Positions 48,519-62,975 of a stretch of DNA of 64,000 nt are shown one piece after another. The DNA is taken from positions 15,871 to 79,870 of the forward strand of contig JACRAP010000023.1 of NCBI GenBank assembly GCA_016213365.1. The letters are read 5' to 3'. The notes under the pieces are model-generated. The model was not told the DNA's origin. It saw only the letters and a list, made by a program, of their open reading frames with translations, and searched no databases. The stretch is from Candidatus Berkelbacteria bacterium. GTDB lineage: Bacteria > Patescibacteriota > UBA1384 > 2-12-FULL-50-11. Position numbers and translations under genes: made by a program. The stretch's first letter is position 1. Each line of letters begins with the position of its first letter.

Positions 48519-50213
48519 CTACCTTAACTTATAATAATTTGCCATCCAGTTTGCGATTCTTTCAAAAGTTGGGGCAACGAAAGCGCTGGCAAATTGCGCG
48601 GTTTTTGGGCTATCGATCCGGACTACCATTACGTATTTTGGATCTTCTACCGGAAAGAAGCCAGCAAATGTTCCGATATATTTGTTTTTATAGTATCCGC
48701 CATCAGGCGACGGGATTTGAGCAGTACCAGTTTTACCAGCAACTGTTACCCCAGGCACACTAACACGCTTTTTCCCAAAATTTTCAATCACCGCTTTAAG
48801 CATCTGTTTTATTTCAGCGCTAACTTCTTTTGAAATAATTTGCTCACCAGATGTTTTACGTTCTATCACAATTTCTTTCCCGTTTTGAATCGTACTTTGT
48901 ACAATATACGGATTTACACTTATGCCTCCGTTGGCAAGCGTGCTATACATTTTTGCAAGCTGTACAACAGTCGCCGAGATTCCTTGGCCGAAGGCGGCAG
49001 TCGAGCGCAGTAAATCGTTCCATTCTTTTTCTGGCGGCAATCTACCCGATTGTTCGCCGATAATATCTATATTAGTCTTTGATCCTAAGCCAAATTTTTC
49101 AAAATACTCGCGTTCTTTTTTTGCTCCAATTAAACTACTTACCCATACCATCTGCACGTTGTCGGAGTTAACTAGCACTTCTGTCATCGTTTCGTTTCCA
49201 AATGCCTTGTCTTCTGCGTTGGTTATTTTATAACCCAAAACCTCAACCTCTGCGCCGGCGTTATGCTGTGTGTCTGATTTTACTAATTTCTCGTTTAGTG
49301 CCATCGACATTGTAATTGGCTTAATAACACTTCCTGGTTCGTAAATGTTACTAGCGGCACTAAGCAAGAATCTCGACTGCTCTTCGCCGCTTAATTTATT
49401 GTAATTGTTTGGATCAAACGTTGGTTGCGATGCCGCTGCGATGATCGCACCGGTTTTTGGGTCCATTACTAGTACCGATCCACGCTCGGCTTTAAAATCC
49501 TTAATTGTTTTTAACAATTCTTGCTCAACCACGTACTGCAAATTGTAGTCGATCGTTAATACGATATCGTTTCCGTTCACCGAGTCTCTGACTCCTAAAA
49601 TGCTAATTAATTTTCCAAAGGCGTCGTTTCTAACTGTTTCACTGCCGCTTTTACCGCTTAGCTCGTTATCGTAAATTGCCTCAACGCCGTATTTACCCTT
49701 GCCGTCTGCGCCCACAAAGCCCATTATTTGGGCCGCTATCTTATCTGCTTCTGGATACACCCTAACAACACGTGGCTGAAGGGTAACGCCTCGATAATCT
49801 TTTTCTTTAATTTTACTGGCTGTTTCGGTTGTTAAATTATCGAGAATCGCAGGCACATAAACTTTATCGTTATTAATTTTGCTATACACTTCCTCGATAT
49901 TTAATTGTGGCAAATCTTCTTTTAGTAGTTCAAGTAATTTTTTCTTATCCTTTACTGAGCGCGGAGTGATAAGTAACGAGTATTGCCACTCGCTTGCGGC
50001 TAAGGAGTAATATTTACCGTCACGATCTTTTGCTAAAATCTGCCCTCGCTGTGCCGGAGTTGCGCTAGTACTTATCGATTGTTCCTCTGCTTTTGAGGCG
50101 TAACTTTTATGATCTAAAACTTGTTTTTCAAACAGAAAAAACATATACAAACCACCGGCAAAAAAGAGCAGAGTGTAAATTGTAAATATTCTGTCAATCT
50201 TTGCCATAGGCAA
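48519..50213 (-). CDS. ftsI: Penicillin-binding protein FtsI-like (class B transpeptidase)
   Basis: N-terminal TM plus dimerisation domain; SxxK (SVIKP), SDN and KTGTA motifs. Confidence 0.9.
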   Translation of the reverse strand: MPMAKIDRIFTIYTLLFFAGGLYMFFLFEKQVLDHKSYASKAEEQSISTSATPAQRGQILAKDRDGKYYSLAASEWQYSLLITPRSVKDKKKLLELLKEDLPQLNIEEVYSKINNDKVYVPAILDNLTTETASKIKEKDYRGVTLQPRVVRVYPEADKIAAQIMGFVGADGKGKYGVEAIYDNELSGKSGSETVRNDAFGKLISILGVRDSVNGNDIVLTIDYNLQYVVEQELLKTIKDFKAERGSVLVMDPKTGAIIAAASQPTFDPNNYNKLSGEEQSRFLLSAASNIYEPGSVIKPITMSMALNEKLVKSDTQHNAGAEVEVLGYKITNAEDKAFGNETMTEVLVNSDNVQMVWVSSLIGAKKEREYFEKFGLGSKTNIDIIGEQSGRLPPEKEWNDLLRSTAAFGQGISATVVQLAKMYSTLANGGISVNPYIVQSTIQNGKEIVIERKTSGEQIISKEVSAEIKQMLKAVIENFGKKRVSVPGVTVAGKTGTAQIPSPDGGYYKNKYIGTFAGFFPVEDPKYVMVVRIDSPKTAQFASAFVAPTFERIANWMANYYKLR

Positions 50214-50215
50214 GA

Positions 50216-50542
50216 TTACTCAGTAACGGTAATTGTTTCAAGCGTGTCGCCGACGCTAACTAACCCCTGTTTGGTTGCCGATTCGCTAAGACGAGTTGTG
50301 CTTTGCAGTCTTGATGCATTTAGCTCGAGCGTTTTTAATTCTTTGTTTAATTCAATTTTTTGATTCTCAATAACGTTTATTTCAATCTTTTTATCCGAGC
50401 CCTGTGCCGCTTCGATTAAATACATCAACGTAAATAAACCGATAAATAAAATTATCACGTAACGGGCAGTCGTTGGACCGATACTAAAAACGCTACCTGA
50501 TTTATAGATTCCTCTGCGATATTGATTTCTTTGAAATTGCAT
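50216..50542 (-). CDS. ftsL: FtsL-like cell-division protein
   Basis: Small single-TM coiled-coil protein between rsmH and ftsI. Confidence 0.6.
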   Translation of the reverse strand: MQFQRNQYRRGIYKSGSVFSIGPTTARYVIILFIGLFTLMYLIEAAQGSDKKIEINVIENQKIELNKELKTLELNASRLQSTTRLSESATKQGLVSVGDTLETITVTE

Positions 50543-50593: not shown

Positions 50594-51430
50594 TTACAAA
50601 TTTATGCTAACGCGTAACTTTGCGCTTCTACTGCTTGGATTTACTTGAATCTCTTGCAGTGTTGGTGTAACTGGTTTTTTAGTTACCACTTTCATCTGCT
50701 CTTTCATAAAATTTTTAACGATTCGGTCTTCGATCGAGTGAAAGCTTATTACCGCTAGCACCCCGCCGACTTTCAGGCATTTTTTAATCTCTCTTAAGCC
50801 GAATTTTAAGTGATCGAGTTCGTCGTTTACTTGAATTCGAAGCCCCTGAAACAATCTGGACAACACCGCTGGTTCACTGGTGCCGATAATCTCAACGAAA
50901 TCGCCGACCGTCTTGATCGCTTTTTCTCTTCTTGATGCAGTGATTTTCGAAGCTAAGTGTTTTGCGTATCTGTCTTCGCTGTACTCGCGGAAAACTTTTT
51001 CAATCTGGCTTACGCTTGCTTGATTTAAAAACTGCCAAGCCGATTGCCCGCCATTTGCGTCGTAGCGTAAATCGAGTAGCTCATCGGTTTTTGTGTGGCT
51101 AAACCCTCGCCCTGATGAGTAAAGCTGATCGGTAGAAAATCCAAGGTCTAAAATCGCTCCGTCGAACTGTTTCTCAAGATCTTCAACTTCTAGATAGCTA
51201 AGCGGGAAGAAATGAAAGTTTTTTGACTTTAAGGTTTTGGCAAAGCGAATTGCGGTCGGATCACGATCGAGCGCGTACAAGTGACCCTTCGGACCAAGCC
51301 GTTCCAAAATCGCTCTACTATGTCCGCCACCACCGAAAGTTCCATCTAGATAATTTCCGTCTTTTTTAATTTCAAGGAAATTAATTATTTCGGAAACTAA
51401 TATGCTCTTATGTTTTGACAATTCTTCCAT
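50594..51430 (-). CDS. rsmH: 16S rRNA (cytosine1402-N4)-methyltransferase RsmH/MraW
   Basis: SAM-binding motif DGTFGGGGHS. Confidence 0.9.
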   Translation of the reverse strand: MEELSKHKSILVSEIINFLEIKKDGNYLDGTFGGGGHSRAILERLGPKGHLYALDRDPTAIRFAKTLKSKNFHFFPLSYLEVEDLEKQFDGAILDLGFSTDQLYSSGRGFSHTKTDELLDLRYDANGGQSAWQFLNQASVSQIEKVFREYSEDRYAKHLASKITASRREKAIKTVGDFVEIIGTSEPAVLSRLFQGLRIQVNDELDHLKFGLREIKKCLKVGGVLAVISFHSIEDRIVKNFMKEQMKVVTKKPVTPTLQEIQVNPSSRSAKLRVSINL

Positions 51431-51798
51431 AGTTTTATCTTCTTGATGATTTTATGCTTTATTTAAGCTGTTTATGTACAAATATGTTGGCCAAACGGCA
51501 GGGGGACTTCAAGTGCGGCTGGCTGCCGGGCGTGGAGTCCTCGCAAATTACTAAGCTTAGACAAATCCCAACAGCTCCATCCCTTATTCAGGGCACTGCA
51601 CCTACTCCATGAAATAAAATTTCAATAACCAGATGTCAGAAACCCGCATAGAGGTTCCCCCACCGCTGGTACCAAAAGTGTTGGAATACTGGGGCGCAAG
51701 CGCCAAAGTATTAATTTTCGTATTCGCGAAATACTGCGTTACTGCGCTGACACTGCGAAATACAAAATTTAGTGCTCTAAAAATTAAAGCGACTATCA

Positions 51799-52230
51799 TT
51801 ATATTCCCCACTCTCCTAAACCTTCGGCGTTCTTTTCGGAATTCTCTTCGGCGGCTTTACTATATTTCTCCCACGCTTGCGGCTCCCAAATTTCAACCCT
51901 GTTAAATACGCCGGCAACAACCGACTCGTTTTTGATTCCTGCATATTCTCGTAAATAAGAAGGTAATAAGGCGCGTCCTTGTTTATCGATCTCTACTTCC
52001 ATCGCACCGCTAAGCATCATTCGGGCAAAAGCACGAGCGTTCGGATTGGTGATTGGTAGTGATGCGAGTTTATTTGCCATTACTTCCCATTCGCCTTTAG
52101 GGTACAAGAACAGGCACGAGTCTAGTCCTCGTGTAACAATCGCCGACGATCCCAAGTCGCTGCGAAACTTCACCGGTACCGACATTCGGCCTTTGGCGTC
52201 TAAGCTGTGTTTGTACTCTCCTAGAAACAT
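51799..52230 (-). CDS. mraZ: Transcriptional regulator MraZ
   Basis: MFLGEYKHSLDAKGRMSVPVKFR and a second DxxxR repeat. 143 aa. Confidence 0.9.
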   Translation of the reverse strand: MFLGEYKHSLDAKGRMSVPVKFRSDLGSSAIVTRGLDSCLFLYPKGEWEVMANKLASLPITNPNARAFARMMLSGAMEVEIDKQGRALLPSYLREYAGIKNESVVAGVFNRVEIWEPQAWEKYSKAAEENSEKNAEGLGEWGI

Positions 52231-52318
52231 CGATTTTTGTTGTTGTTTTTGTTTGTTTATATATTGCGTCGATCATTGGTTGGCTTCCCCTCGGAGCCGT
52301 GCTAGCAGTGAAGTTTTT

Positions 52319-52364
52319 CCACAAGGTTTTCCACTTTTCCCCACTTTTTTCCACTTCTCTCCAC
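52319..52364 (-). promoter_or_regulatory. Candidate MraZ operator: five direct GTGG(A/G)RAA repeats with 10-12 bp periodicity, about 90-135 nt upstream of mraZ
   Basis: Minus-strand sense gtggagagaa gtggaaaaaa gtggggaaaa gtggaaaacctt gtggaaaaa. MraZ is known to bind GTGG-type direct repeats upstream of its own gene. Confidence 0.5.
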
Positions 52365-52397
52365 TTGCTGGAATTACAATATGTTCATTTAAGATGC

Positions 52398-52428
52398 TTG
52401 TCAAGTACTTTATTTTTAGGTGTATAAT
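52398..52428 (+). promoter_or_regulatory. Sigma-70-like promoter (TTGTCA, 19-nt spacer, TATAAT, with TG immediately upstream) driving the small gene at 52481
   Basis: cttgtcaagtactttatttttaggtgtataat; divergent from mraZ. Confidence 0.4.
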
Positions 52429-52480
52429 TAACCCACGTTTCTCAGCGTTGAGGGGCGAATTTACTCAAAGGAGAGTAAGA

Positions 52481-52678
52481 ATGGAAGGGAACTTGTCGGA
52501 ACGGCAGCAAATACTTGCGCTCAAAAGGGCCGATCAGAAGCTCGATGATGCGCTTAGACAGATGGCTGTGCGTGCCATCCGAAACTTGCCCCCAGAACAC
52601 AGGCTAAAGGAAGCGAATTTCTGGGATACGTTTCATCCGGTAACGGACTGTGGGACAACTGGTCAAGGACGACATTAA
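52481..52678 (+). CDS. Small GC-rich ORF (65 aa) with a strong RBS, or alternatively a small structured RNA
   Basis: GGAGAG, 7 nt, then ATG. About 52% GC against a 38% background. Followed by the hairpin gcggccccgataaggggccgc. Confidence 0.35.
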   Translation: MEGNLSERQQILALKRADQKLDDALRQMAVRAIRNLPPEHRLKEANFWDTFHPVTDCGTTGQGRH

Positions 52679-52681
52679 ACC

Positions 52682-52702
52682 GCGGCCCCGATAAGGGGCC
52701 GC
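52682..52702 (+). terminator. GC-rich stem-loop 3' of the small ORF (no clear U-run)
   Basis: gcggcccc-gataa-ggggccgc: an 8-bp perfect stem. Confidence 0.35.
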
Positions 52703-52728
52703 TGAATTAATAGTGTATATTTGATTTA

Positions 52729-53058
52729 ATGGATAAATTATCAAGTGGTAAATGCGTTCCGTGTGAGGGCGGAGTTCCGCCGATCGAAGGCGAGCGACTA
52801 ACCGAGTTAAAAAATCAGCTCGACCAAGAAGCGCCCGGTTGGGAGTTATCCGATCCAAAACATTTACAAAAGACCTATAAATTCGCCGATTTTAAAACGG
52901 CGCTGGAGTTTGTTAATAAAATAGGCGAAATTGCCGAGCAAGAAGGACATCATCCAAATATTGAATTCGGTTGGGGGTTTGTGAGAGTTTTGCTTTGGAC
53001 GCACGCAATCAACGGCTTAAGTGACAACGACTTTATTTTAGCTGCTAAGTTAGAGTAA
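52729..53058 (+). CDS. phhB: Pterin-4-alpha-carbinolamine dehydratase (PCD/DCoH)
   Basis: EQEGHHPNIEFGWGFVRVLLWTHA matches the PCD signature E-x3-H-H-P-x5-W-x12-H. Confidence 0.85.
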   Translation: MDKLSSGKCVPCEGGVPPIEGERLTELKNQLDQEAPGWELSDPKHLQKTYKFADFKTALEFVNKIGEIAEQEGHHPNIEFGWGFVRVLLWTHAINGLSDNDFILAAKLE

Positions 53059-58468: not shown

Positions 58469-58730
58469 AAAAACTCAAAATGTTCGAGTGTGTTCCAAAC
58501 TAAAGTTGAAGATACTTCTTCTAGTAGCTGTTTACTCTTTCCTGCCTAGAAATATCGCAATTACATAAACGATGCTATCGAGATTGCTCTCGACAGTTAA
58601 ACAGAAAAGAGAAAGTAATTCATGGACCTATAAGTATCCCTTGGCTCAACGCGTTACCGCGCTTACACCTAGGACCTTTCAACCCGGTAGTCTTCCGGGG
58701 GTCTCATAACGAAGATTAATCTTGGGACCT

Positions 58731-58761
<31 letters not shown>

Positions 58762-59039
58762 AGTTATGATCGTAGCTACTCGACAGTGCCCTTGGCAGGA
58801 CAGCCGATACACCAGCGGATCATCCGCTCCGGTCTTCTCATACTAGGAGCCGCCTCCCTCAATCTTCCGCGCTTACAGCAGATGAGGACCGAACTGTCTC
58901 GCGACGTTCTGAACCCAGCTCGCGTACCCTTTTAATTGGCGAACAGCCAAACCCTTGGGACCTTCTCCAGCCCCAGGATAGGATGAGCCGACATCGAGGT
59001 GCCAAACTGCGCCGTCTCTGTGGACGATTGGGCGCAATC

Positions 59040-59076
<37 letters not shown>

Positions 59077-59236
59077 GCCGGCCGTCTCGTACTGAAACCG
59101 GCTGGATCACTTACGCCTGCTTTCGCACCTGCTCGGCTTGTAGGCCTCACAGTCAAGCTCGCTTTTGGGTATACCCTATCGGTACGATTTCCACCCGTAC
59201 CTAGCGAACCTTTGCACGCCTCCGTTACCTTTTAGG

Positions 59237-60123
59237 CAATTTTGTTAACTTAGTTTGTATTTCATCGAGGGAATTATATGGTTTGACACCAATAAGGTAA
59301 ATTTCTCAATTTGACTGGCGGGAATATAGATCTGGTACCCGTCTAACTGCCTCCGAAGCGTCGTCGTAATTACGAATTGGTTCTTCAACAAATCTTGCAA
59401 ATAACTAACACTTTGAACATCAAATGCTTGAGTATTTAGTATTTTTGCGCGATGTTTAGCTGACTTGGATGACCCATCATCCATAAACCAAACCGCTAAT
59501 GATAATTGCGTGACAAATCGTGAAATTGTTCCTGGAATTATCTTTTTTCCTTCTCGATAGAAGAGCTTTCCATACGGCGACAAAGACTCAAGGCCCAAGG
59601 TATTAAAGTAGTAGTTTCTACTTTGCTTACCATTCCTATGCTTTTCTTTTGCTTTTGGTTTCGTCCTTACAAGATTATGTAGTTCGGAGTAAATCCATTC
59701 CACATACTCTTTGTGAGCGAACGATTGCTCAACTTTCAAACGATATGTTCTGCCGTTATTCTGAGTTTCTAAATGTCCGTCACCCAACATTAGTCCGACA
59801 ATTATTTCTATTTGACGGGGCGTTAGATTAACAGATTTTGAAATATCATGAATTTCTGCGGTATTCATACCTATTTAAGCGTCTTGTACAAAGACAAGAC
59901 TCTGTATGTCGCCATACAGTTCAGACTATATCTTCGCTAGAATTTGTAAATACTATTTTCTAGCGCTCGGCGTGTAGTCGTTGAGGGGTCAATTCATTTC
60001 TGAACGACTTCCCTGCTGATTGTCTCCATAGTCCAACCGATTACTCGTTGGAATTTTAGAGAGGTCCCAGCATATAGCCAAGATGCCCCTTTCTGATCGT
60101 TATTATACTGGTGATCATGGTCA
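59237..60123 (-). mobile_element. Group I-type intron in 23S rRNA domain V (887 nt) carrying a homing endonuclease ORF
   Basis: Conserved exon sequence gactggggcggtcgcct | cctaaaaggtaacggagg is interrupted. The 5' exon ends in U and the intron ends in G. An ORF fills the 3' two-thirds. Confidence 0.6.
59245..59868 (-). CDS. LAGLIDADG homing endonuclease (double-motif) encoded within the 23S intron
   Basis: Motif 1 RQIEIIVGLMLGDGHLE and motif 2 LSLAVWFMDDGSSKS. 207 aa. Confidence 0.85.
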   Translation of the reverse strand: MNTAEIHDISKSVNLTPRQIEIIVGLMLGDGHLETQNNGRTYRLKVEQSFAHKEYVEWIYSELHNLVRTKPKAKEKHRNGKQSRNYYFNTLGLESLSPYGKLFYREGKKIIPGTISRFVTQLSLAVWFMDDGSSKSAKHRAKILNTQAFDVQSVSYLQDLLKNQFVITTTLRRQLDGYQIYIPASQIEKFTLLVSNHIIPSMKYKLS

Positions 60124-61415
60124 AGGCGACCGCCCCAGTCAAACTACCCATCTGACACTGTCTTAGTTGTTTTTGCAACTAGTGAGTCTCAAAACAAACG
60201 AAGGGTGGTATTTCACTGTTGTCCGAAGACTCCCACCTATGCTACACATCATGTGCCCTGAAACAATATCAAACTGTAGTAAAGCTCCACGGGGTCTTTC
60301 CGTCTTGCTGCAAGTAGCCGGCATCTTCACCGGCAGTGTAATTTCACCGAGTCCCTCTTTGAGACAGTTTTCAAGTCGTTATGCCATTCGTGCGGGTCGC
60401 TACTTATGCGACAAGGAATTTCGCTACCATAGAACGGTTATAGTTACCGCTGCCGTTCACTCGGGCTTAAATTCGAGCCTCGTCCCGCACTTTGAACACA
60501 AAGTGCTAAATCCTAAATCCTAAGTTCTAAACCCTAAACAGACAAATCCGTTTTGAGTTTAGTGTTTCGAATTTTGAATTTTCACCTTGTGCGCAAGGTG
60601 CGGGAGTCAGCCCTCCTCGTAACCTACGAGCACTGGGCAGGCATCAGCCCCTATACATCTCGTGAGAGATTTGCAGAGACCTAAGTTTTTGTTAAACAGT
60701 CGCTTGAAAGTCATTTGCTGCGGCCAGCACCGCTGCTCCGCACCAGTAAATCCTAAATAACAAGTACTAAATTCAAAACTTGAATTTAGTGTTTTGTGCT
60801 TAGAATTTGCCAATGCGAAGCATTGGGACTGGCAGTCCATATTCCGAAGTTACGGACGCTTTTTTGCCGAGTTCCTTAAAGAGGGTTCACTCGACCACCT
60901 GAGGCTACTCGCCTCAACTACCTGTGTCGGTTTGCGGTACGGATACTAAACATAGTTGACTTAAGAATTTTCTTGCCAGACTTTGAGGTGCTTTCGAAAT
61001 CCAATAATCTTAGCACCCACGGGTCCGTGTCTTCTTAAGGTAGTTGTTTAGTAGTGACGGAATATTAACCGTCTGAACATCGGGGTATTCCCTTAGATCC
61101 GACTAACCCACAGACGATTGGCGTTGCTGTGGAAACCTTAGATATGCGGTGACCAGGGTTCTCACCTGGTTTTCGTTACTCATGCCAACATTCGCACTTC
61201 GTATCGCTCCACAGTCGCTTACGCTTCTGCTTCACTGCAATACGAACGCTCCTCTACCACTCGCAGATAAATCTGCGAATCCTAAAATTCGGTACCTAGC
61301 TTAAGCCCCGTTGAATTTTCCGCGCAAAAAGGCCTAGAGGATTTCTACGCCGCGAAGGCTTTCGCCGACACATTGTAGAGAATCGTAGGATCGACTAGTG
61401 AGCTGTTACGCTTTC

Positions 61416-61447
<32 letters not shown>

Positions 61448-62033
61448 TAGTTGTCTACGCCTTTCCACTTCGTTTTCCACTTAGCTAGAATTTAGGGACC
61501 TTATTTGTAGGTCTGGGCTCTTTCCCTTTAGACCATGCAGCTTAGCCCGCACAGTCTGACTGTATATCCCAAACGGTGTGTATTCGGAGTTTGATAGGAG
61601 GTGAGAGCTTGCGCCCCCAAACTCCTTTCAGTGCTCTACCCCACACCATGCGGATATACGCTATACCTATATATATTTCGAGGAGAACCAGCTATCTCCG
61701 GGTTCGATTAGTATTTTACCGCTTACCACAAGTCATCCCCCAATTTTGCTACATTGGTGGGTTCGGCCCTCCCTGCTAGGTTTCCCTAGAGTTCAGCCTG
61801 CTCATGGCAAGATCACCCGGTTTCGGGTCTAATCCCTGCTGCTAACAGTCGCGCTATTAACACTCGCTTTCGCTTCGCGTTCGATGCATAACATCTTACA
61901 CTCGCAACAAAGATTAACTCGTTGGCTCATTCTTCAAAAGGCACGCCGTCATCCGCCAATTGGCGGACTCCGACTCCTTGTATGCACATAGTTTCAGGTA
62001 CTATTTCACTCCCATACTCTGGGTACTTTTCAT

Positions 62034-62064
<31 letters not shown>

Positions 62065-62975
62065 TAGATATAGTATTTAGCCTTACGGCACGATCACCGT
62101 ACCTTCCGACTGGATTACACGTGTCCAGCCGTACTCAGGATCAGTATCCAAACGGTAAAGTAGTTTAAAATACGGGACTATCACCCCCTATGGTGGTCTT
62201 TTCCAAGATCCTTCTTCTACTACTTTTTGAACTCGTTCGATTTTACAATCTGATACTGCCCTATAACCCTCGCGCATCTCATGTTGGACGCAAGCAAAAA
62301 CAAATTTTCAAAAGGCTAGATCCATTAATTTTAAAGAATCGCCTGTTACTTACTTACGCCCAAGATGAGACACACGAGTTTGGGCTTTTCCCTATTCGCT
62401 CGCCGCTACTGGGGGAATCGTTACTACTTTCTTTTCCTCCGGCTACTAAGATGTTTCAGTTCGCCGGGTGCCTCTGTCGCTTCGCTTCAAACTCAAAATT
62501 ACAAACTCTAAATCCAAAATCAAAATATCCGTTTTGAGTTTTGAACTTTGAGCTTTGAATTTAAAGTGAAGCGACATAATGTCGGTTCACGACATTGGGT
62601 TTCCCCATTCGGAAATCGCCGGATCAAAGCTTGTTGTCAGCTCCCCGACGCTTATCGCAGACTACTACGTCCTTCATCAGCTATATCTACCAAGACATCC
62701 TCTATGTGCACTTTGGTGAATTACTTACTCTGTCTTTCACGGAAAGTGAATTAGACAGAGTTACTTGACCAACTTTTTCCATTTCTGGGATACAGAAATT
62801 TGAAAGTTGGACTTTTTTGCTAAAAGTTGAAATATCTTCAACTTTAGCTTGGAACCTAGTTGTTAAGATGACGCAAGTTAACAAAAAGCCGCTGTTGGCG
62901 GCCGTAAAGTCAACCAAAAAACAGTTGGCTTTTAACCGGCTCCTCCTTTGGTTTTACTTAACATGTACCTAACAA

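Follow-up and report, generated by a model that had tools for sequence, protein, structure and literature searches.

Organisation of the locus

The DNA analysed here is a 64-kb stretch (hereafter the window), and the interval under study is the control region of the dcw operon in a Berkelbacteria-like Patescibacterium. The MraZ encoded here has an identical counterpart in NCBI under the name Candidatus Berkelbacteria bacterium. The features of this interval are compiled in Table 1. The operon runs on the minus strand, with mraZ followed by rsmH and by ORFs resembling ftsL and ftsI. On the opposite side of the mraZ promoter there is a 65-codon ORF on the plus strand, and 50 nt past its stop codon begins the gene for pterin-4a-carbinolamine dehydratase (PCD), with which the ORF is possibly co-transcribed. 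The gene for glycyl-tRNA synthetase is next beyond the dehydratase gene, on the minus strand, and relatives keep the synteny glyS - PCD - (small ORF) - mraZ. For comparison we used a set of 160 related mraZ loci (individual loci are given L numbers below). The closest MraZ, as judged by searches of GTDB representatives, JGI metagenomes and a 5.8-billion protein set, was 78% identical and came from L162.

A scan of the whole window against Rfam at gathering threshold returned rRNA, tRNA and a group I intron only. The intron (match 59902-60151, 71.9 bits) is located inside the 23S rRNA gene (58611-62726, minus strand), which extends over 4116 nt compared with the 2925 positions of the model.

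Table 1. Features of the dcw control region and neighbouring genes (positions in the window)
Feature	Position	Strand	Details
ftsI-like ORF	48519-50213	minus	
ftsL-like ORF	50216-50542	minus	
rsmH	50594-51430	minus	
Conserved box GYACWUAAAMA	51469..51479	minus	From alignment; downstream of RNA element
Structured RNA candidate, roughly 180 nt	51491..51670	minus	Between mraZ and rsmH
Closing helix P1	51657-51667 with 51494-51504	minus	
Long hairpin P3	51595-51639	minus	
Hairpin P4	51581-51593	minus	
Unpaired GGGAUGG stretch	Between P4 and H2	minus	
Helix H2	51567-51573 with 51524-51530	minus	Encloses P5
P5	51559-51562 with 51537-51540	minus	
mraZ	51799..52230	minus	143 aa; Pfam MraZ, 5e-41
MraZ operator, five GTGG boxes	52319..52364	minus	GTGGAGAGAA, GTGGAAAAAA, GTGGGGAAAA, GTGGAAAACCTT, GTGGAAAAAC
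Putative mraZ (dcw) promoter	52376..52404	minus	TTGACA-17-TATTGT; consensus scan
Putative small-gene promoter	52398..52428	plus	TTGTCA, 19-nt spacer, TATAAT; from sequence
65-codon ORF	52481..52678	plus	65 aa plus stop, MEGNLSERQQ...GQGRH
Terminal hairpin	52682..52702	plus	Perfect 8-bp GC stem, 5-nt loop; GCGGCCCC-GATAA-GGGGCCGC
Pterin-4a-carbinolamine dehydratase gene	52729..53058	plus	Pfam Pterin_4a, 3.7e-30

The mraZ promoter and the MraZ operator

The original prediction described five phased GTGG repeats upstream of mraZ, and all five are present. Read on the mraZ strand, the boxes begin at 52364, 52354, 52344, 52334 and 52322 (CCAC on the plus strand at 52361, 52351, 52341, 52331 and 52319), which gives spacings of 10, 10, 10 and 12 nt. 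The phased triple GTGG-N6-GTGG-N6-GTGG occurs at this single site in the 64-kb window and was obtained in none of 100 dinucleotide-preserving shuffles. The start of mraZ transcription, inferred from the promoter scan, falls a few nt upstream of the first box, and the -35 motif TTGACAAG is found at the same place in relatives. With regard to the cognate regulator, the MraZ product carries two DXXXR motifs, one within LDAKGR at residues 10-15 (with K13 and R15) and one as DKQGR at residues 82-86 (with R86); K13, R15 and R86 of MraZ are known to contact bases (PMC12957436).

The same prediction had also turned on whether relatives carry the repeats, and phased GTGG repeats were found upstream of mraZ in nearly all of the 160 related loci. 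At MraZ identities of at least 65%, most loci display four boxes spaced at 10 nt and a fifth at 12-13 nt (L002, L003, L006, L014, L016, L017, L039, L082-L086 and others), and four boxes are present in the remaining loci. The reading of the repeats as autoregulatory MraZ boxes thus finds support in their architecture, in the position of the promoter, in the K13/R15/R86 residues of MraZ and in the layout in close relatives. We regard the five boxes as a standard, conserved MraZ operator, for which binding and repression by MraZ are predicted from work in E. coli, B. subtilis and Mycoplasma. In such a scheme, a sigma-70-type promoter (TTGACA-17-TATTGT) would fire leftwards into mraZ, with the five boxes lying directly downstream, at roughly +3 to +50 from the predicted start. 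An MraZ oligomer seated on the boxes would repress its own operon, its neighbouring subunits reaching with K13, R15 and R86 into consecutive major grooves along a single face of the helix.

Sequence features of the divergent small unit

The strong Shine-Dalgarno sequence (SD), the 65-aa ORF and the perfect 8-bp GC hairpin that had been assigned to the divergent unit were all recovered. The SD, AAGGAG, is located at 52468-52473, 7 nt before the ATG of the 65-codon ORF, and the hairpin starts 3 nt past the stop codon. Since no U-run follows the hairpin on the plus strand, it is not a canonical intrinsic terminator. The claim of a near-consensus promoter was borne out in part: the -10 element TATAAT (52423-52428) is perfect, but the one good -35 element, TTGTCA (52398-52403), lies 19 nt away, and the promoter scanner did not call this promoter because of the 19-nt spacer. 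L162, the closest relative, also has the -10 block GGTGTATAA. The small-gene -35 and the mraZ -35 overlap at 52398-52404, one on each strand, and share a palindromic TTGTCAA/TTGACAA. A similar adjustment applies to the GC anomaly. The ORF indeed has 51.5% GC, but the window has 41.4% rather than the 38% first given, and the anomaly must be considered modest since 4.4% of the 198-nt windows across the window equal or exceed the ORF in GC.

A local hairpin with a 6-bp stem at 52460-52477 (TTACTC AAAGGA GAGTAA) has the SD in its loop and 3' arm and could modulate translation initiation.

No homologue of the 65-aa product was detected. A word-based protein search of the 5.8-billion set and phmmer against 1.84 billion representatives were both negative, and two phmmer matches were rejected because they are repeat proteins in which weak matches add up. 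There was no significant Pfam or NCBIfam match for the ORF or for nine positional analogues, searches of all fetched loci with the ORF by tblastn and blastn yielded chance-level matches only, and an exact-protein look-up returned no called gene with this product. AlphaFold2 run on the single sequence confidently predicted one long helix over residues 7-34 (pLDDT about 90), with a short one at 44-51, and the product is most likely a soluble, alpha-helical protein.

The small-ORF slot in relatives

The slot between dehydratase/glyS and mraZ is a variable spot that contains different small ORFs or none. In L162, L163, L166, L039, L006/7, L014, L025, L034, L086, L159 and L117 the slot is taken by a divergent ORF of 60-101 aa, in most cases together with a -10-like box, an SD-like site and, downstream, a hairpin that in some loci has a canonical U-tract. 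The slot is without an ORF in about half of the clade; the dehydratase gene directly faces mraZ in L016, L093, L164 and L167. As in the window, the slot ORFs of L006, L014, L025, L034, L039, L086, L117 and L159 have a GC content above that of their own locus, by 1.6 to 9 points.

The slot proteins are mostly without detectable homology to the window ORF or to each other. Those of L025 and L034 are homologous (E 1e-17), with an in-frame indel and a dN/dS of about 0.43, and those of L006 and L014 match at an E of about 1e-3. The window ORF and its counterpart in L162 have in common a 10-residue motif near the C-terminus, KE.xF[WR]DTFH (E 0.001), located at an equal distance from the hairpin in both, and two of the three nucleotide differences within the FxDTFH core are synonymous third positions. 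A likeness of the form '..L..LPP..' among slot ORFs was dropped for want of statistical support, since a profile of L006, L007 and L014 misses the window ORF. Two further features were noted in L162, namely a terminator-like hairpin at 2775-2800 (GGGGTTGA-AAAA-TCAACCCC-TTTT, as read on the minus strand) immediately beside the mraZ -35 and a second copy of TTATCAAG before the small-gene promoter.

Peptide gene, RNA or neither

The original prediction held a structured small RNA to be as plausible as a peptide gene, a parity that could not be upheld. A structured or dual-function small RNA at 52436-52710, divergent from mraZ and acting on division genes, would be in keeping with a GC content 10 points over the window mean, with the lack of protein homologues in the databases searched, and with the 9-bp hairpin at the 5' end and the perfect 8-bp hairpin at the 3' end, which make the whole unit more stable than its shuffles (folding z = -2.88). 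This excess stability is, however, located in the two terminal hairpins, whereas the 198-nt body of the ORF (52481-52678) folds like shuffled sequence (z = -0.74). A cmscan of 51300-52900 against Rfam, the check that had been proposed for the unit, gave 0 matches at E ≤ 10. Among 166 related loci, no part of the unit had an alignable nucleotide homologue except a 20-nt island that keeps the reading frame, which leaves no conserved nucleotides for covariation, and what relatives retain is an SD-preceded ORF rather than the sequence or the fold. Moreover, an SD and ATG combined with an ORF of such size marks mostly long ORFs elsewhere in the window: ATG ORFs of at least 55 aa with AGGAG or GGAGG 5-17 nt upstream number 13, and the other 12 are 88 to 446 aa in length, nine of them above 180 aa and one being the ORF in ftsL position. 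A small RNA acting on division genes appears quite improbable on these grounds, and a peptide gene is favoured, albeit not proven.

The ORF might instead be non-functional, either as a chance or decaying frame in the 5' leader of the dehydratase gene or as something transcribed from a promoter that is weak and spurious. Its orphan status and its atypical codon usage and GC3 would fit such an origin (its codon score is at the 5th percentile of real-gene chunks and its GC3 is 0.52 vs 0.39 in the window's genes), yet among the six frames the annotated one scores best for codon usage (+0.078, the others ranging from -0.21 to -0.58), and only 0.7% of off-frame chunks score above it, although possible stop codons lower off-frame scores. 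The 19-nt promoter spacer and the hairpin without U-tract, as a result of which transcription may continue into the dehydratase gene, likewise speak for a non-functional frame, while the strong SD 7 nt from the ATG and a stop codon that abuts the hairpin speak against it. The comparison with relatives is similarly divided. The slot is empty in about half of them, the counterpart ORF in L162 has no well-placed canonical start codon, and L006 and L007 differ by three nonsynonymous and one synonymous change, a neutral-looking pattern drawn from four differing sites only; on the other hand, the arrangement of SD, ORF and hairpin recurs in most of a dozen relatives, L025/L034 bear the mark of purifying selection and the peptide motif is kept in L162. 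We consider a non-functional ORF unlikely, although less so than a small RNA. Least credible of all is that the small gene belongs to the MraZ regulon as a division-related factor co-controlled through a shared promoter region. Because of the overlap between the two -35 elements (52398-52404, opposite strands), the promoters could be coupled in their occupancy by RNA polymerase, but the five boxes are all downstream of the mraZ start, beyond the mraZ -10 and at least 34 bp from the small-gene -35. In relatives the small-gene promoter is 40-60 nt from the mraZ -35, other relatives have an empty slot with the dehydratase gene there instead, and the small proteins are not conserved. The layout thus offers nothing for MraZ control of the small gene, and the co-regulation with division genes that had been suggested from its position is not supported, the boxes being on the far side of the mraZ promoter and the relatives' slot being empty or filled with unrelated small ORFs. 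The divergent unit is probably an orphan, fast-evolving, lineage-specific gene for a small protein. As such it would form a small separate transcription unit back-to-back with the mraZ promoter, composed of TATAAT, AAGGAG, the 65-codon ORF and the GC hairpin, and its transcription may read through into the pterin dehydratase gene.

A structured RNA candidate between mraZ and rsmH

The candidate structured RNA of this locus appears to be not the divergent unit but an element on the opposite strand, 800 nt from it, in the gap that separates mraZ from rsmH. This gap measures 219-468 nt both in the window and in all relatives whose MraZ identity exceeds 65%. In many more distant Patescibacteria it is -16 to +27 nt, and in others it reaches up to about 215 nt without containing the element. 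In all of 24 loci the element was found in this gap, on the coding strand, and the gap contains conserved blocks in the order ACCAGyGGUGGGGGA ... CUGUCGGG ... GGGAGGAC ... CCCGGCAG ... CCCCUGCC..UGG. The conserved box GYACWUAAAMA downstream of the element is 6-18 nt before the rsmH start codon in most relatives; its pairing with an internal loop was considered by eye and rejected as inconsistent across sequences.

The element is non-coding. Stops occur in all three frames in 19 of the 24 orthologues, element lengths across orthologues fall into all classes modulo 3, and the translation 'FGTSGGG' is in a frame that differs between loci. Gene callers place ORFs of 42-56 aa on the element in several assemblies. 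With regard to transcription, the element is probably part of the operon transcript: in several loci about 25 nt separate it from the mraZ stop codon, too little for a promoter to fit, and a promoter scan of the mraZ-rsmH gap in the window predicted none. No U-tract follows the element. The frequent G-U pairs establish the strand as that of mraZ.

The topology common to three minimum-energy structures inspected is a rod with three arms, and all 23 orthologues folded more stably than their dinucleotide shuffles (z from -2.6 to -9.1, mean -5.2). RNAalifold on a plain MAFFT alignment produced a long closing helix and an internal helix. A full covariance model (186 positions, 41 pairs) scored 102-160 bits on 24 distinct sequences, and in the corresponding alignment 89% of the cells were paired as compared with 45-56% in slid controls. 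Compensatory changes were observed in 29 of the 41 pairs, against 14-18 with slid partners and 16.2+/-2.2 in shuffles, and none of 500 shuffles reached the observed count. It should be kept in mind that this alignment had been fitted to the model, for which reason the MAFFT alignment served as a separate control. There, 94.5% of the cells of 23 pairs were paired vs 44-56% with slid partners, and 13 of the 23 pairs had compensatory changes vs 2-6 when slid. The plain alignment agrees with the model-based picture for three helices. Column-wise scans for an extension of P1 gave no single register. A covariance model of the 3' half matched 27 loci, all of this clade and with one match in the window, and had no match in about 130 other loci. 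The element is thus restricted to relatives whose MraZ is at least 65% identical.

In two sub-lineages the P4 arm is enlarged by well-paired insertions of roughly 50-70 nt, of which there are two different ones (L084 1821-2056, L167 3020-3255, L083 871-1102, L098 3010-3256, L106 943-1189 and L117 1130-1377), as is typical of a variable peripheral stem. Between the mraZ stop and the element (51671-51798, minus strand), the window has three copies of CGCAGT (TTCGCAGTGTCAGCGCAGTAACGCAGTATTTCGCGAA) followed by a GGCGC-TT-GCGCC hairpin; these repeats and the hairpin are specific to the window and are not conserved in relatives.

The element had no Rfam 15 match at E ≤ 10 in the window, and the orthologue in L008 gave spurious snoRNA and SmY matches only. 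Identities as SRP, 6S, cobalamin or SAM riboswitch RNA were rejected on the basis of sequence, architecture and the lack of an Rfam match, and a full-text literature search found no description of the element. It is a good candidate for a new structured RNA in the division operon. Our best guess is that it acts in cis as a leader or processing element for rsmH-ftsL-ftsI. More tentatively, and at somewhat less than an even chance, it may represent an undescribed class confined to Berkelbacteria-related Patescibacteria, co-transcribed within an MraZ-repressed operon and acting in cis on rsmH-ftsL-ftsI, be it as a leader that responds to a ligand or a protein or as a site for processing or standby; its function would then be analogous to that of the actinobacterial mraW motif.

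Significance and relation to known systems

The present results bring the candidate phyla radiation into the known range of the MraZ box operator, here in a five-box (4+1) variant that is conserved, and add one more orphan small ORF, but the operator and the ORF matter little alone. The RNA element matters more, as few regulators are recognised in the uncultured, genome-reduced Patescibacteria. A clade-wide RNA supported by covariation suggests a second, post-transcriptional layer of control on division genes, and its defined sequence and covariance model can be used for search, probing and testing.

The small unit resembles orphan small proteins in general in that it is short, helical, preceded by an SD, without homologues and located in a variable intergenic slot; these, however, are a category rather than a family.

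With regard to the operator, the E. coli dcw promoter has three MraZ boxes. Three GTGG[A/T]G repeats are needed for repression in B. subtilis (bioRxiv 10.1101/2022.02.09.479790), and M. genitalium has four MraZ boxes with the start site inside the first (PMC12957436). The GTGG boxes described here match the published GTG(G/T) architecture with its 6-nt spacer, the (predicted) start site is in or beside the first box as in published MraZ operators, and the cognate MraZ has K13, R15 and R86 as in the published systems. The differences are in the number of boxes, five as opposed to three in B. subtilis or four in M. genitalium, and in the offset of 12-13 nt of the fifth box, a 4+1 layout that is kept across the clade.

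Two RNAs linked to dcw clusters invite comparison with the RNA element. UpsM is an sRNA derived from the 5' leader of the dcw cluster of Rhodobacter sphaeroides, where it is located in the 5' UTR preceding mraZ and has a Rho-independent terminator at its end (PMC5089854). The similarity is that UpsM, too, is an RNA with a physical link to mraZ and the dcw operon, but neither the divergent unit nor the mraZ-rsmH element has the position of UpsM or a U-tract terminator. The mraW RNA motif (RF01746) of Actinomycetales has been listed as a cis-regulatory candidate (PMC2864571). Both this motif and the element described here are conserved structured RNA candidates upstream of mraW/rsmH in the dcw operon; they differ in that the motif belongs to another phylum and gave no match at E ≤ 10 in two orthologues of the element (window and L008). 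Furthermore, the mraW motif is essentially a single hairpin, whereas the RNA element of the present locus is about 180 nt long and is built from a closing rod and three arms.
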